From Patescibacteria group bacterium (GTDB lineage: Bacteria; Patescibacteriota; Patescibacteriia; Buchananbacterales; UBA6539), in the NCBI GenBank assembly GCA_028688055.1, contig JAQTYZ010000004.1, positions 99,021 through 150,580 on the forward strand: DNA of 51,560 bases, in the 5' to 3' direction. Below are positions 594 through 11,370 of the stretch, one piece after another (positions within the stretch are counted from its first letter, which is position 1; every line of letters begins with the position of its first letter). The notes below the pieces were generated by a model that was not told the DNA's origin, did not search any database, and saw only the letters and a program-made list of their open reading frames with translations. The translations under genes were made by a program, and so were the position numbers.

Positions 594-631
594 TTGACAA
601 ATAGTTTTAAATTATATAAGATGCTTATATA
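594..631 (+). promoter_or_regulatory. Promoter of the marR operon with a putative MarR operator
   Basis: TTGACA(594-599)-N17-TAAGAT(617-622); perfect 8-3-8 inverted repeat TATATAAG-atg-CTTATATA (613-631) overlaps the -10. Confidence 0.7.
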
Positions 632-661: not shown

Positions 662-1090
662 ATGTCGAACCGAAAACGAAAAATTGAAGAAATTTTAGAG
701 AGCTTTCAGGCAATCAAAAATAAAATGCAGTCCAACTCCACACCGCCTGATTATAAAGACTGCGTTACCCACTCGCAACTTTTTGTTTTGGCCATTATTA
801 GGCAACATTGCAATATCGGCATTAAAGAAATATCAAAAAAACTTAATATCTCTTCAAGTGCGGCTACCCAACTAGTCGACGGCTTGGTCGAAAACGGCTA
901 TGCCGTTCGAAAAACTGACTTAAAAGACCGGCGAGCGTTGCAGTTAGAGCTTACAGCTAAAGGATATAAATATATTGTTGACCTTAATAATAATCGGCTC
1001 AAGAATTTAGCAACATTATTTGACGCTTTAAACGATGACGAACTTGTAACTTTTCTAACGCTGCACAAAAAAATACTAGCAAAAAATTAA
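662..1090 (+). CDS. MarR-family transcriptional regulator
   Basis: wHTH pattern IKEISKKLNISSSAATQLVDGLVENGY and wing motif DRR..LELT.KG. Confidence 0.92.
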   Translation: MSNRKRKIEEILESFQAIKNKMQSNSTPPDYKDCVTHSQLFVLAIIRQHCNIGIKEISKKLNISSSAATQLVDGLVENGYAVRKTDLKDRRALQLELTAKGYKYIVDLNNNRLKNLATLFDALNDDELVTFLTLHKKILAKN

Positions 1091-1108: not shown

Positions 1109-1726
1109 ATGGATTTTACTAAATTAGCTTCCCCGGAAGTTACCATAACAACTAGCACCGTCTTAAATAACAATGGGATCGAAACCATTATGGTTGAAAA
1201 TTCCGCCGCGGCTTTAGCAAAAATTAAGGAGTTAATCCCACCGGGAGCATCAGTAATGAACGGTTCATCCCGAACACTTGAAGAAATTGGATTTATTGAA
1301 TACTTAAAATCCGGCCAGCATGGCTGGAATAACCTCCACGAAGCCATCGTGGCCGAACCCGACCAAGTTAAACAAACAGAACTTCGTCACCAAGCCGAAT
1401 TCTCCGATTACTATTTAGGCAGTGTTCACGCTTTAGCCCAAACCGGCGAATTCATCATTGGCTCAAATACTGGTAGTCAATTACCCCATATTGTTTACAC
1501 TTCTCCCAATCTAATTTTTGTTATCAGTACTAAGAAAATCGTCCCAACGTTTGCTGACGCCATGACGCGCCTTAAGGAGCATGTTATTCCTCTGGAAGAT
1601 GTAAATATAATGAATAAATATGGTATTCACACAATGTTGTCAAAAATTGTCGTATTTTGTAAAGAAAATCCTAAACTGGGAAGAAAGGTTCGGATTATTT
1701 TTGTTAACGAAGACCTAGGTTTTTAA
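1109..1726 (+). CDS. LUD-domain (LutC/YkgG-like) protein
   Basis: GASVMNGSSRTLEEIG, DYYLGSVHAL..TG....S.TG and C-terminal E.LGF resemble stand-alone LUD proteins. Confidence 0.75.
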   Translation: MDFTKLASPEVTITTSTVLNNNGIETIMVENSAAALAKIKELIPPGASVMNGSSRTLEEIGFIEYLKSGQHGWNNLHEAIVAEPDQVKQTELRHQAEFSDYYLGSVHALAQTGEFIIGSNTGSQLPHIVYTSPNLIFVISTKKIVPTFADAMTRLKEHVIPLEDVNIMNKYGIHTMLSKIVVFCKENPKLGRKVRIIFVNEDLGF

Positions 1727-1748: not shown

Positions 1749-2519
1749 ATGGCCAGTCAACCAATTATCTGCTTTGGGCAACAACCCTGTGGGTTTTTCC
1801 CAAAAAGATATTTAATCGCTAAAATTAATAGCGCCCAAGCGTTACAGCAAAAAATCGGCGGCAAAATTATTTTTTTTTATCATGATTCTGACCATGATTA
1901 CCGTGAAACGATAACGGTCATGCGCGACTGTCAAACCGGCGTTATTGATCGACTTAACTTCGAACAGGAAAACAAAATTCAAAAAAAATATTCACCACTT
2001 TACACAAAACGAATTCCCGCTGACTGGCAAGCGGTGACCGCCAGACGATTACCTCGCTTTACTGACAAAAAATTAATTACTATTTTTTCATCAATTAAAG
2101 GGAAGACCGTAGCTGATTTTTGCTTAGAACTTTATCAGCAAGCTGGGCTACTTGATAACATTGAGGTTGTTCGCTCTAGTGACAAGACTGTTCGTCATAA
2201 CGCGATTGACATGGCTGACGATTATTTTGTTGACCTAAATTATGAGAATGAAATTGTTCGAGCTAGATTTAAAGATGGTAAAGTCTTATTACACCGCGGT
2301 GGCGATCAATACATCGAGTTACCGAAACAGGTGATTGAAAAATCACAAATTAACCCAGATCGTAAACAGCGCTTTAGCTGGATGCAATCGGTGGTTCACT
2401 GCACCCATTATATCACCGGCCAAGGCGAAGGAAATTACCTGGAAACGCAAAATTTTCCTGACGTAATTTTTATTAACCGCGAAGAAATCACCGATCCAGA
2501 TTTTGCCTGGGTCGGCTAA
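1749..2519 (+). CDS. Short BshC-like protein (putative cysteine-adding enzyme, 256 aa)
   Basis: FGQQP ~ BshC TGQQ; FFYHDSDHD ~ FW...EDHD; NP...HYITGQGEGNY ~ SPN...YIGGPGE.AY; directly upstream of bshB and bshA. Confidence 0.65.
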   Translation: MASQPIICFGQQPCGFFPKRYLIAKINSAQALQQKIGGKIIFFYHDSDHDYRETITVMRDCQTGVIDRLNFEQENKIQKKYSPLYTKRIPADWQAVTARRLPRFTDKKLITIFSSIKGKTVADFCLELYQQAGLLDNIEVVRSSDKTVRHNAIDMADDYFVDLNYENEIVRARFKDGKVLLHRGGDQYIELPKQVIEKSQINPDRKQRFSWMQSVVHCTHYITGQGEGNYLETQNFPDVIFINREEITDPDFAWVG

Positions 2520-2529
2520 CAATATTGCT

Positions 2530-3228
2530 ATGACCAAAAAAATATTAGCCATCGGTCCTCACCCCGACGACCTTGAATTCTCAATCGGCGGCATTTTAAT
2601 CAAAGAAGTTGCCGCCGGCAACTCAGTGGAAATGTTAGTAATGTCCAAAGGTGAAGCGGCGAGCAATGGTTCGCCCGAGGTTCGCCAACAAGAAGCGGCG
2701 TTGGCCGCCAAAATTATCGGCGCTAAATTAGCGTTTACCGATTTTGGCGGCGATGGCCATTTGATTTACTCAACGGCCAATGTCATTAAGCTAGCCGAGC
2801 TAATTCGACAGCTTCGGCCCAATATTATTATCACTAACGGTGATGAACAAAATCAACATCCGGATCATGTTCAGGCGTCAGCCATCGTCAGAGCCGCCGC
2901 GCGCCTCGCTCGGTATGGCGGCATTAACGAATTAAAAAATATACCCCCCCACCAAATTGACGCTTTATATTTCTACTCAGCAACATTAAATACTACTTTG
3001 CCGCCTGACCTTATTATTGACATCACCAACGAAGTTAAAACTTGGGAAAAAACTATGACCGCCCATGCCAGCCAGCTAAAAACTCGAAAGTATGTTGATT
3101 TAGTAATGGCCCGAGCTAAAATTTTAGGCCTATCAATCAATACTGAATATGCTCAGGGTCTCTACGCCAATGACCCGTTGGTTATTGATTTGCCGTCAAC
3201 CATTAATTCATCAGCTAGAAATTTCTAA
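2530..3228 (+). CDS. bshB1: PIG-L family deacetylase, bacillithiol BshB1-like
   Basis: ILAIGPHPDD and HPDH zinc motifs; H.SQ; adjacent to bshA; start set at MTKKIL (2530). Confidence 0.82.
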   Translation: MTKKILAIGPHPDDLEFSIGGILIKEVAAGNSVEMLVMSKGEAASNGSPEVRQQEAALAAKIIGAKLAFTDFGGDGHLIYSTANVIKLAELIRQLRPNIIITNGDEQNQHPDHVQASAIVRAAARLARYGGINELKNIPPHQIDALYFYSATLNTTLPPDLIIDITNEVKTWEKTMTAHASQLKTRKYVDLVMARAKILGLSINTEYAQGLYANDPLVIDLPSTINSSARNF

Positions 3229-3229
3229 A

Positions 3230-4381
3230 ATGACAATAACCAAAAAACTTAAAATTGGAATTGTTTGTTATCCGACAGTCGGCGGGAGCGGCATCGTGGC
3301 CACTCAACTCGGTATTGCCTTAGCCAAACTTGGACATAAAATTCATTTTATCAGTTATCAACGACCTTTCCGCTTGCCAACCCAATCAAAAAATATTTAC
3401 TTTCATAAAGTACCAATTAACACTTACCAACTTTTCCGCTACCCGGACTACACCTTGCCGCTAGCCGTCACTATGACTGATGTCCATACCAAATATAAAT
3501 TAGACATTATGCACGTTCACTATGCCGTGCCCCATGCCACCGCGGCGTTATTGGCGAAACAAATAATTACCGACCACCAAAAGATTAAACCATTTAAAGT
3601 CATCACCACGCTCCACGGCACCGATATTACTTTAGTTGGCAATGACCAAAGTTTAAAGCCAGTAATTTGTTACTCCATTGGAAAATCAGACGGTATTACG
3701 GCGGTGTCAAAAAATTTGGCCACCGAAACAAAAAAGATTTTCTGTATCAATAATCCCATTGAAGTTATTTATAATTTTTATTCGCCAAAAAAAATAACCA
3801 AGTCACCGCAACTTATCCGTCGTGAACTAGGCCTAAACAAAAATACTTTTGTCATTAGTCACGCCTCCAACTTACGGCCCGTCAAACGAATTCCTGATTT
3901 ACTAAAAATATTTTCACAGGTTGAGAAAAAACATGATGCTAAATTGTTAATTTTGTCCGGTGGTGATTTTTCACCCTACTTGCCTTTAGCTAAAAAGTTA
4001 AAAATTGAGAAAAAAATAATTCTCAAACAAAACGTCGCTGACGTTGAAAATTATCTTAATGCTGCTGACTGCGGATTATATACCTCTGATCATGAAAGCT
4101 TTGGGATGAGTATTTTAGAGACCATGAGCTATGGTAAGCCGGTTTTAGCGACGCGCGCTGGCGGCGTGCCCGAAGTAATTACCAACCGACTTAATGGTTT
4201 GTTATATCAAGTCGGCGATATCAACGGTTTTACCTCTGGTATCGACGAACTAATTAATAATAAAAAATTATGGCAAAATATTTCCAGCGAGGGGAAAATT
4301 AAAGCCGAACATTATTTTTCAGCAGCTAAAATGGTAAAAAAATATTTAGACTACTACTCTAAAATCTTGGCCCAAAATTAA
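3230..4381 (+). CDS. bshA: N-acetyl-alpha-D-glucosaminyl L-malate synthase (GT4)
   Basis: KIGIVCYPTVGGSGIVAT.LG, HVHYAVPHA, TTLHGTDITLVG, H.SNLRPVKR, ESFG; start set at 3230, 1 nt after the bshB stop. Confidence 0.93.
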   Translation: MTITKKLKIGIVCYPTVGGSGIVATQLGIALAKLGHKIHFISYQRPFRLPTQSKNIYFHKVPINTYQLFRYPDYTLPLAVTMTDVHTKYKLDIMHVHYAVPHATAALLAKQIITDHQKIKPFKVITTLHGTDITLVGNDQSLKPVICYSIGKSDGITAVSKNLATETKKIFCINNPIEVIYNFYSPKKITKSPQLIRRELGLNKNTFVISHASNLRPVKRIPDLLKIFSQVEKKHDAKLLILSGGDFSPYLPLAKKLKIEKKIILKQNVADVENYLNAADCGLYTSDHESFGMSILETMSYGKPVLATRAGGVPEVITNRLNGLLYQVGDINGFTSGIDELINNKKLWQNISSEGKIKAEHYFSAAKMVKKYLDYYSKILAQN

Positions 4382-4827: not shown

Positions 4828-4842
4828 CTTTTCTCAACTAAT

Positions 4843-4871
4843 AAAAAAATCGCCTCATCGGCGATTTTTTT
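4843..4871. terminator. Bidirectional terminator between csp and the DEAD helicase
   Basis: A7-TCGCC-tcatc-GGCGA-T7 between convergent genes. Confidence 0.85.
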
Positions 4872-4881
4872 ATTGTCAATT

Positions 4882-9074: not shown

Positions 9075-10814
9075 ATGAAACTACTCATCATTTACCTCAA
9101 AAAATACAAGGGCACCTTAGCTGGTGCTCTGGTTTTGGCAACCATTAATCAGCTTTTTTCGTTGCTTGACCCGCAAATATTTCGTTTAATTATTGATAAC
9201 TACGCAACTAAAACTGACCAGCTTGGCCACAATGAATTCGTCATTGGTGTGTTTCTGCTACTATTGGCATCAGTTGGTGCCGCCTTAGTGTCGCGGATTG
9301 CGAAAAGCTTTCAAGACTACTTTGTTAATGCGATCACGCAAAAAGTTGGCACTAGCTTATACGCCGACATGCTTAAGCACGCCTTCGCGTTACCCTACTA
9401 TGTTTTTGAAGATCAGCGCTCCGGTGAACTGCTCCAAAAAGCTGACAAAGCCAGAACTGATTCACAAATTTTTATCGCCAGTGTTATTAACATTGTTTTT
9501 CTGGCGCTGATTGGGATGGTGGTCGTTATCAGTTACGCCTTTTTTGTTCATTGGTTAATTGGCCTACTTTATATCTCAATGATACCGTTATTAAGCTTAA
9601 CAACTTTTTTTATCAGTCGAAAAATCAAAGCGGCTCAAAAAATAATCGTGTCAAGATCAACCAGTCTGGCTGGATCAATTACCGAGACTTTAAGAAATGT
9701 TGAAATGGTCAAAAGTTTAGGTCTTGAGGATCAGGAAACCAAAAGATTAAACGATGTTAATCAGGATATTTTAGAATTAGAATTAAAAAAAATTACCCTC
9801 ATTAGAACGCTGAGTTTTATCCAGGGAACATTGGTTAATGCCACCCGGTCTTTGTTATTACTTTTGATGCTCTGGCTAATTTTCCAACATCAAATGTCCT
9901 TGGGACAATTTTTTACCTTGATGTTTTATTCGTTTGCCATTTTCAGCCCGCTTTATGAACTAGGCACCGTGGCGGCTCAATACCAGGAAGCTCAAGCCAG
10001 CTTAGGCGTGGCACAACAAATTTTTAGCCAAAAGCCCGAGCCACGAGCTGTTAATCCCGAAAAAATTAACGGCTTAAAATCAATTCAGTTTAAAAATGTT
10101 AACTTCGGCTATACCAATAGTGACAGACTGGCCCTCGAAAATATTAATTTTGAAATTAGCAACGGTCAAACCGCCGCCTTTGTTGGCATGTCTGGTTCCG
10201 GCAAATCAACAATTATTAAACTACTAGTTGGTCTTTATCAAGCCCAAGTTGGTCGGGTTGAGGTAAACAACATTGATTCAAAAAAAATCGATCTTGATAA
10301 TTGGCGGCGGCGGCTTGGTTATGTCTCCCAAGATACCCAGCTGTTTGCCGGAACCATTGCCGCCAATTTAAAATTTGTTAGACCCAACGCCACTGATGAG
10401 GAATGCTATTTAGCCCTGGAACAAGCGTCAGTCAAAAATATTATTGAACGCGGCGAGCTTGGCTTGAACACCAGAATTGGCGAAGGCGGATTAAAATTAT
10501 CCGGCGGCGAGCGCCAAAGACTTGCCATCGCGCGAGCCCTATTACGACAGCCGCAACTAATTATTTTTGATGAAGCAACTTCTAACCTGGATTCTCTTAC
10601 CGAAAAATCAATCACCAATACCATTCAAGGGATCAACCAAACTAACCCCAACCTCATGATGATTTTGGTTGCTCACCGATTATCCACGCTGGCCCATGCT
10701 GATATAATCTATGTTTTAGAAAAAGGCAAAATTGTTGAGCAAGGTAATCATCAAGACTTATTAAATAAGCCTTCGCTCTATGCGGCGATGTGGCGTGAAC
10801 AGCAAGCTATTTAA
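9075..10814 (+). CDS. ABC transporter, fused permease and ATPase (exporter type)
   Basis: N-terminal TM helices; GMSGSGKS, LSGGERQR, IIFDEATS, AHRL. Confidence 0.93.
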   Translation: MKLLIIYLKKYKGTLAGALVLATINQLFSLLDPQIFRLIIDNYATKTDQLGHNEFVIGVFLLLLASVGAALVSRIAKSFQDYFVNAITQKVGTSLYADMLKHAFALPYYVFEDQRSGELLQKADKARTDSQIFIASVINIVFLALIGMVVVISYAFFVHWLIGLLYISMIPLLSLTTFFISRKIKAAQKIIVSRSTSLAGSITETLRNVEMVKSLGLEDQETKRLNDVNQDILELELKKITLIRTLSFIQGTLVNATRSLLLLLMLWLIFQHQMSLGQFFTLMFYSFAIFSPLYELGTVAAQYQEAQASLGVAQQIFSQKPEPRAVNPEKINGLKSIQFKNVNFGYTNSDRLALENINFEISNGQTAAFVGMSGSGKSTIIKLLVGLYQAQVGRVEVNNIDSKKIDLDNWRRRLGYVSQDTQLFAGTIAANLKFVRPNATDEECYLALEQASVKNIIERGELGLNTRIGEGGLKLSGGERQRLAIARALLRQPQLIIFDEATSNLDSLTEKSITNTIQGINQTNPNLMMILVAHRLSTLAHADIIYVLEKGKIVEQGNHQDLLNKPSLYAAMWREQQAI

Positions 10815-10818
10815 ACTT

Positions 10819-11370
10819 ATGCCAAATGAGCTAGAAAATAAAAAAGAGGTAGCTGTGTTCGGTGGCGGTTGTTTTTGGTGTACTGAAGCCATTTTTCAAA
10901 TGCTTCAGGGCGTGCGATCAGTAAAATCAGGCTATGCCGGCGGTACTAAGCCAAATCCAACTTATGAAGATGTCTGTACGGACAGCGACGGTCACGCGGA
11001 AGTTGTTAAAATTGAGTTTAATCCAGCCATCATTAAATTCCGCGATTTACTTGAAATTTTTTTTGCCACACACAATCCCACCACCTTGAACCAACAAGGC
11101 AATGACCACGGCGGACAATACCGCTCAATCATTTTATACGCGACGCCCGAACAAAAAACCGAAGCCGAAAATTACATTGAACTTTTAACTTTACAAAATG
11201 AATTCGACAAACCAATTGTTACCGAGCTTAAACCCCTGAACGAATTTTATGAAGCGGAAAATTATCACCAAAACTACTACCACAATAATGAGAGCAAACC
11301 CTACTGCCAAATCATTATCAGTCCAAAGTTGGCAAAATTTAAAGCGCATCATCCCAAATTAATCAATTAA
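10819..11370 (+). CDS. msrA: Peptide-methionine (S)-S-oxide reductase
   Basis: GGGCFWCTE, GYAGG, H.E, QYRS, AENYHQNYY; start set at 10819. Confidence 0.95.
   Translation: MPNELENKKEVAVFGGGCFWCTEAIFQMLQGVRSVKSGYAGGTKPNPTYEDVCTDSDGHAEVVKIEFNPAIIKFRDLLEIFFATHNPTTLNQQGNDHGGQYRSIILYATPEQKTEAENYIELLTLQNEFDKPIVTELKPLNEFYEAENYHQNYYHNNESKPYCQIIISPKLAKFKAHHPKLIN

Follow-up and report, generated by a model that had tools for sequence, protein, structure and literature searches.

We analyzed a 51,560-nucleotide stretch of DNA (the window) from a Patescibacteria group bacterium (assembly GCA_028688055.1, contig JAQTYZ010000004.1, positions 99,021 to 150,580 of the forward strand) and found that the open reading frame (ORF) at positions 1749-2519 encodes a protein, termed here mini-BshC, that is best described as a compact, sequence-divergent, and newly recognized variant of BshC, the last enzyme of bacillithiol synthesis. 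We consider it probable that its gene and the two that directly follow it, for a BshB-like deacetylase and BshA, constitute a cassette for the synthesis of a bacillithiol-type thiol, in which mini-BshC carries out the cysteine-adding step. The core motifs of BshC are retained in the protein, and its gene shows a close and widespread linkage to bshA and, in most cases, to bshB. An initial reading of the window, made from the sequence only, had drawn attention to a 256-amino-acid ORF with FGQQ, DSDHD, and NP...TGQGEGNY motifs, and ORF 1749-2519 carries all of them, namely, CFGQQPCG at residues 8-15, HDSDHDY at residues 45-51, NP at residues 201-202, and TGQGEGNY at residues 223-230.

Mini-BshC is predicted to adopt the fold of the BshC core

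An AlphaFold2 model of the window protein, based on an alignment of its family, had a mean predicted local distance difference test score (pLDDT) of 94.1 and a predicted template modeling score (pTM) of 0.91. The modeled chain forms a Rossmann sheet of five parallel strands (residues 6-11, 39-44, 139-142, 220-223, and 240-243) that carries two inserted modules, of which one is helical with a hairpin and the other is a four-stranded meander. A structural comparison with BshC had been set beforehand as a test of the sequence-only reading, and Foldseek searches of the Protein Data Bank (PDB) returned 4WBD, the structure of Bacillus subtilis BshC, as the top match for both models that were built. 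For the window model, 4WBD (E value of 7.8e-10, probability of 1.00, query TM score [TMq] of 0.65, 15% identity) was the sole match at an E value of ≤1e-3 and was followed by the aminoacyl-tRNA synthetases GlnRS, GluRS, and TyrRS (E values of ~2e-3, TMq of ~0.33). The second model, that of the Thalassobacterium sedimentorum (Verrucomicrobiota) protein, was obtained from an independent alignment of sequences from outside the Candidate Phyla Radiation (CPR) and had a pLDDT of 93.8; 4WBD was again its top match (E value of 3.0e-10, probability of 1.00, TMq of 0.66). As modeled, the fold of mini-BshC is thus BshC-like.

Mini-BshC is equivalent to BshC residues ~85 to 385, with the residue pairs aligned by hhalign ending at position 358 and motif inspection placing the end of the chain at about position 385. 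The segment corresponding to BshC residues 1 to 84 is missing, the GQQ motif being located already at residues 10-12, and the loops are shorter by about 50 residues, the largest gap comprising 28 residues (BshC residues 261-288). The C-terminal coiled-coil dimerization domain (PF24850) is absent, and there was no Pfam match to it in mini-BshC. The designation of the protein as a minimal catalytic-core BshC, made in the initial reading, is in agreement with these data, since the alignment spans the core region, whereas the N-terminal segment and the coiled coil are absent and not encoded nearby.

The comparison with known systems reveals both likenesses and differences. (i) BshC of B. subtilis (YllA; PF10079 plus PF24850; TIGR03998; 4WBD) has the same class-I-synthetase-like Rossmann core as mini-BshC, surpasses all its other structural matches by six orders of magnitude, and shares with it the colinear motifs and the association with bshA and bshB genes. 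In contrast, the proteins differ in length (539 versus 256 amino acids), have only ~15% sequence identity, and diverge before the shared D-x-D, where mini-BshC has HDSD and BshC has AGED; furthermore, mini-bshC has a fixed place in front of bshB and bshA in an operon, in contrast to the unlinked bshC of B. subtilis (PMC5790435). (ii) The class I aminoacyl-tRNA synthetases (GluRS, GlnRS, TyrRS, and class I LysRS) resemble mini-BshC in that a five-stranded parallel Rossmann core carries two inserted connecting modules, and they form the second tier of Foldseek matches (E values of 1e-4 to 1e-2, TMq of 0.3 to 0.5). However, mini-BshC lacks the HIGH and KMSKS motifs and the anticodon-binding domain; in its sequence, strand 1 is followed by GQQ and strand 4 by GxGE. 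(iii) MshC, the mycothiol cysteine ligase and a paralogue of cysteinyl-tRNA synthetase, catalyzes the analogous step, in which cysteine is attached to the amine of a glucosamine at the expense of ATP, and also has the class I synthetase Rossmann fold. No specific similarity of mini-BshC to MshC was detected, the synthetases retrieved by Foldseek being GlnRS, GluRS, TyrRS, and LysRS (TMq of 0.3 to 0.5).

The mini-bshC gene is linked to bshA and bshB across phyla

The gene neighborhood was inspected in a sample of 82 loci from different species, with flanks of 6 kb. In 75 of these loci, bshA is located directly downstream of mini-bshC on the same strand, either with bshB between the two genes (44 loci) or without it (31 loci); another three loci are cut by contig ends, and four (L011, L050, L065, and L070) contain mini-bshC without an adjacent bshA. 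The spacers in this gene order are close to zero, and the linkage spans Patescibacteria, Verrucomicrobiota, Acidobacteriota, and Melainabacteria. The co-location with bshA and bshB genes, on which the sequence-only reading depended, is thus seen far beyond the window. The same reading had considered such a pathway to be unexpected in a reduced genome; this view is not sustained, since the cassette is common in Patescibacteria and its presence here is not exceptional. Apart from mini-bshC, bshA, and the optional bshB, no further gene was conserved with the cassette across clades. A search of the 6-kb flanks of the 82 loci with the hidden Markov model (HMM) of full-length BshC detected neither a canonical BshC nor a coiled-coil domain encoded by a gene of its own.

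In the window itself, the DNA was read at each gene junction. The mini-bshC stop codon (TAA, 2517-2519) is followed by the first ATG of the PIG-L gene at position 2530, leaving a 10-nucleotide spacer, and an alternative start of this gene at TTG 2503 would overlap the end of mini-bshC. The PIG-L gene ends with TAA at positions 3226-3228, and the ATG of bshA is at position 3230, which corresponds to the 1-nucleotide coupling of bshB and bshA that had been proposed. The spacer between mini-bshC and the preceding gene, encoding a LUD-domain protein, is 22 nucleotides.

The assignment of the bshA product is unambiguous at the sequence level. The protein scored 425.8 bits against TIGR03999, far above the cutoff of 273.7 and hence at the equivalog level, and it aligned over its full length (residues 5 to 380) with the BshA structures 3MBO, 2JJM, and 5D00 (E values of 3e-90 to 5e-88). 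For the PIG-L protein, the best NCBIfam match was TIGR04001 (BshB1) with 152.2 bits, which is below the cutoff of 182.5, and the closest relative in the PDB was 6P2T, a GlcNAc-malate deacetylase 1 (BshB1; E value of 2.1e-27). The label bshB1 given to this gene initially was therefore slightly overstated, although its product is BshB-like and has BshB1 as its best solved relative.

In the loci outside the CPR, two further genes were frequently found upstream of the cassette, namely, those for an SSF-type symporter (50 loci) and for a PIG-L-domain protein of ~859 amino acids (48 loci); in the coordinates listed (e.g., L018 1620-5997 and L057 1534-4110), both are just upstream and on the same strand. 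The latter protein combines PIG-L and NPCBM_assoc domains. Where bshB is missing, as in 31 loci, this large protein may take the place of BshB.

Relationship of mini-BshC to BshC at the sequence level

A number of observations weigh against the assignment of mini-BshC as a cysteine-adding BshC relative. (i) No Pfam match of the protein was significant, the best being PF10079, the BshC Rossmann-like domain, with 14.4 bits (E value of 0.025) at a cutoff of 27. (ii) There was no NCBIfam match at an E value of ≤0.01. (iii) Searches of the PDB sequences, by phmmer with the protein and with a profile of 37 family members, did not find 4WBD. (iv) In an HMM search of 1.84 billion representatives, the best 150 of 243 matches were short family members or fragments, and no BshC of ~540 amino acids was among them. 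(v) The term cysteine ligase is inherited from Bacillus genetics, as no reconstitution of the BshC reaction has been achieved (PMC5790435). (vi) No bacillithiol-dependent enzyme was recognized among the larger ORFs of the window. To these may be added two features of the profile comparison reported below, namely, the restriction of its BshC side to Bacillaceae and the manner in which shared residues were counted. At the level visible to HMMER, the mini-BshC family is isolated. It is also outside BshC as databases define this family, being below the cutoffs and devoid of the coiled coil and the N-terminal segment.

Other comparisons point to a relationship with BshC. Of 30 diverse members of the mini-BshC family, 8 matched PF10079 (best E value of 8.6e-4), and no other Pfam family was matched by two or more. 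Alignment of the family with a single BshC sequence by hhalign gave only a local match of 22 columns around GxGE..Y, whereas a BshC profile, built from 19 homologues of the 4WBD sequence that were all from Bacillaceae and at least 45% identical, produced a colinear alignment over 209 columns (mini-BshC residues 6-232 and BshC residues 85-358) with a score of 25.5 and a P value of 0.019. None of 200 column-shuffled BshC profiles reached this score (mean, 16.6; standard deviation, 2.5; maximum, 24.9), and the reversed BshC profile scored 16.8. Thirty columns were at least 90% conserved in both families, and the residue was identical in 15 of them, a count that stems from an alignment optimized to find such residues. 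The shared pairs (mini-BshC/BshC) are Q12/Q91, G15/G94, A29/A113, D48/D134, D50/D136, E53/E139, W93/W179, F124/F213, S143/S232, M212/M337, Q213/Q338, T219/T344, G224/G350, E227/E353, and Y230/Y356. The BshC core motifs GGQQxG, EDHD..E, SGD, R..MQE, and T...GPGE..YW are present in mini-BshC as the colinear variants GQQPxG, DSDxD..E, SSD, R..WMQS, and T.HY.GxGE..Y, respectively.

Size, conservation, and distribution of the mini-BshC family

The family comprises 6,633 sequence clusters at an E value of ≤1e-3, nearly all of 253 to 265 amino acids and with 50 to 72% identity. Its members, where named, are annotated as hypothetical proteins, and precomputed Pfam domains are lacking in all of them. 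Some 35 positions show no variation across phyla; invariant blocks that are specific to the family and have no counterpart in BshC include RLNF..NK.QKK.SPLY, ADFC, and LHxGG. The family is thus under strong constraint. With over 6,600 homologous clusters that agree in length and share ~35 invariant residues, the 256-amino-acid ORF is not a fortuitous reading frame. When one genome was scanned for each species, at least 551 genomes were found to encode the family.

A maximum-likelihood tree resolved two clades, each with 98% SH-aLRT support, of which one contains 23 Patescibacteria rows and the other 59 rows from Verrucomicrobiota, Acidobacteriota, and Melainabacteria; the taxon labels are those of the submitters. 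The window protein is located within the former clade, in line with the CPR-like origin suggested initially. Some members depart from the general pattern. In P0268, a full-length representative, the core motifs are no longer present (LSEQ in place of FGQQ and WDSWH in place of HDSDHD), and this protein may be a degenerate or repurposed paralogue. Several others (e.g., P0074, P0058, P0097, P0032, and P0079) carry low-complexity insertions of 10 to 70 residues in two fixed loops, after positions ~105 and ~174 of P0001, indicating that these two loops tolerate insertions. The complete mini-bshC, bshB, bshA cassette is also present in a cultured strain, Thalassobacterium sedimentorum SDUM461004 (L059 6001-6765), which makes direct thiol analysis feasible.

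Proposed pathway and alternative explanations

In the pathway that we propose, BshA, an assignment established at the family level, would act first; the PIG-L enzyme would then likely deacetylate its product to glucosaminyl-malate (GlcN-malate); and mini-BshC would join cysteine, activated in some way, to the free amine through an amide bond. In performing the BshC step, mini-BshC would add cysteine to GlcN-malate, yielding bacillithiol or a close analogue. The protein keeps the class-I-synthetase-like Rossmann core together with GQQ..G, D-x-D-x-x-E, S-x-D, MQ, and T...G-x-G-E-x-x-Y. Since it has lost the N-terminal ~85 residues, loops, and the 154-residue coiled coil, all three are unlikely to be needed for the chemistry. 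Because the cassette has no other conserved gene, any additional partner or activated cysteine donor would have to be a housekeeping component. That the ~255-amino-acid family represents a self-sufficient minimal cysteine-adding enzyme is a tentative proposal, which we consider less likely than not. In Bacillus, BshC is defined by being needed for bacillithiol, with its loss leading to the accumulation of GlcN-malate (PMC5790435). The BshC reaction, however, has never been reconstituted, and the activated cysteine donor, the substrate, and any required partner are unknown (PMC5790435); the mechanism of mini-BshC can thus not be stated more precisely.

The main rival is an enzyme with the same scaffold and pathway position that uses a different donor or forms a different product, either by attaching a moiety other than cysteine to GlcN-malate or by acting on a different aglycone, which would result in a new thiol or a non-thiol glycoside. 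Half of the 30 doubly conserved columns differ between the two families, including H45/D46/S47, which are A/G/E in BshC, as well as R208, H220, and Y221. Together with the invariant blocks that have no BshC counterpart, the distance that prevents HMMER from joining mini-BshC to BshC, and the score of the BshB-like enzyme below the BshB1 cutoff, these differences speak for such a rival. On the other hand, BshA is at the equivalog level and can be aligned from end to end with BshA structures that contain malate, which makes a GlcNAc-malate intermediate likely; the acidic and GxGE..Y motifs common to mini-BshC and BshC are invariant in both families; and no gene for making an alternative donor is conserved in the cassette. 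We therefore regard a different chemistry as unlikely, while giving it more weight than any other alternative.

It is less likely still that mini-BshC has the BshC fold without being a ligase, serving instead in the binding or recycling of GlcN-malate or a conjugate, in regulation, or as a scaffold, with the real ligase encoded elsewhere. The search for canonical BshC covered the 6-kb flanks, four loci carry mini-bshC without an adjacent bshA, and P0268 lacks the GQQ and HDSDHD motifs, all of which would fit a role other than that of the ligase. The strict conservation of the BshC motif residues across phyla and the recurrence of the mini-bshC, (bshB), bshA order with near-zero spacers in 75 of 82 loci argue in the opposite direction. 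In addition, no low-molecular-weight thiol pathway has been predicted for Verrucomicrobia (PMC6282198), and this speaks against a wide occurrence of canonical BshC in that group. A truncated bshC pseudogene or remnant, or one half of a split gene, might be suspected from a protein with 47% of the canonical length in which both BshC termini are absent. This explanation has next to no probability and is effectively refuted by the constant length of ~255 amino acids in more than 6,600 clusters with 50 to 72% identity, by the intact flanking genes with their spacers of 22 and 10 nucleotides, and by flanks in which the full-length BshC HMM matches nothing else within 6 kb at the 82 loci; the chain is also confidently predicted to fold as a complete domain. 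The assignment of mini-BshC to the cysteine-adding step remains the reading that we prefer.

Other genes and DNA features of the window

The features of the window are summarized in Table 1. Five genes, marR, the LUD gene, mini-bshC, the PIG-L gene, and bshA, are codirectional on the + strand and separated by very short spacers. A promoter-like site precedes marR and is, as judged from its sequence, a possible start of this five-gene unit. A pattern scan revealed no terminator-like site on the + strand between positions 662 and 4381, the next one being at positions 4839-4875, and an Rfam scan of positions 1-700 gave no match.

Table 1. Features of the window in and near the mini-bshC gene row
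Feature	Coordinates	Strand	Remarks
Promoter-like site TTGACA-17-TAAGAT	594..622	+	Consensus scan, 10/12 matches; pattern match only
MarR-family regulator	662..1090	+	142 aa; Cys34, Cys50; PF01047 E 1.8e-13
Stand-alone LUD-domain protein	1109..1726	+	205 aa; PF02589 E 3e-27
Mini-BshC (compact BshC-like enzyme)	1749..2519	+	256 aa; AlphaFold2 fold, profile alignment, synteny
BshB-like PIG-L/LmbE zinc deacetylase	2530..3228	+	232 aa from ATG 2530; PF02585 E 4.6e-23
BshA, GT4 glycosyltransferase	3230..4381	+	383 aa; TIGR03999 above cutoff
MsbA-like ABC exporter	9075..10814	+	579 aa; ABC_membrane + ABC_tran
Methionine sulfoxide reductase MsrA	10780..11370	+	PF01625 E 5e-63

The MarR regulator gave weak NCBIfam matches of the OhrR/MprA type, all under the cutoff, and no homologue was found in the 81 other loci at an E value of ≤1e-5. 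At the corresponding position, locus L002 contains a Fur-family regulator. The two cysteines and the OhrR-type likeness of the MarR protein, together with this Fur protein, are hints of redox-responsive control of the gene row. No LUD homologue was found in the 81 other species loci, and the gene recurs only in the closest relative, L084, where it is also directly upstream of mini-bshC (L084 3-224; 74% identity over the 73 amino acids covered); the LUD gene is thus a lineage-specific addition. MarR and LUD were accordingly rejected as conserved parts of the cassette. In L083, a Logan contig with an identical mini-BshC, genes for an HI0933-like FAD-dependent oxidoreductase and GreA are found just upstream of marR, in a region that precedes the start of the window (L083 408-1652).

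Homologues of the ABC exporter are present in 11 of 22 CPR loci compared with 1 of 59 non-CPR loci. Near-orthologues (E values of 1e-145 to 1e-220) abut mini-bshC in six CPR loci (L005, L006, L010, L012, L014, and L052), and in a seventh (L077) the homologue (E value of 5e-193) is ~2 kb upstream. The exporter is thus a possible accessory of the cassette in the CPR. Its interpretation as a CydDC-type thiol exporter is not supported at the family level, since the window protein reached no NCBIfam equivalog (248 bits for CydD versus a required 435) and is generically MsbA-like. MsrA is encoded within 6 kb in 3 of 22 CPR loci and provides redox-defense context only. In a distant part of the window (44085-45992), a G+C peak of 0.54, compared with ~0.41, coincides with a 635-amino-acid ORF containing bacterial TSP3 repeats; a similar TSP3/CARDB protein is encoded downstream of the cassette in L084.

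Relation to previous surveys and biological implications

Our literature search revealed no paper that links BshC with the CPR and no description of the mini-BshC family. Few papers mention bacillithiol together with Patescibacteria or Verrucomicrobia, and these were judged to be unrelated. Hiras et al. (2018) listed Verrucomicrobia and other major lineages as having "no documented or predicted" low-molecular-weight thiol (PMC6282198). Both this study and the 2025 NmbA survey (PMC12719100) required a similar length and a BLAST E value of <1e-20, and both would for this reason have missed the mini-BshC family.

Mini-BshC is predicted to have the fold of the BshC core, and in hundreds of species its gene directly precedes those for the two enzymes that start the pathway; the lineages concerned therefore probably use a half-size enzyme to produce a protective thiol of the bacillithiol type. 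If the family is, moreover, a self-sufficient minimal enzyme, as tentatively proposed above, several consequences would follow. (i) Many Patescibacteria and Verrucomicrobiota and some Acidobacteriota and Melainabacteria would have bacillithiol, or a very close analogue, as their main low-molecular-weight thiol, these being lineages for which the surveys consulted predict none, and the reach of bacillithiol-type thiols would grow accordingly, given that the family occurs in at least 551 species genomes. (ii) Catalysis by canonical BshC would not require its coiled-coil and N-terminal parts. (iii) A small monomeric enzyme would be a tractable means by which the BshC reaction could be reconstituted and its activated cysteine donor identified. 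Among the bacillithiol enzymes, only BshC still awaits reconstitution of its reaction, and a half-size version that retains the conserved core residues without the dimerization domain narrows down what is essential and offers a simpler protein for biochemistry and crystallography. For the very small genomes of the CPR, a dedicated redox-buffer pathway would be a notable retained capacity.

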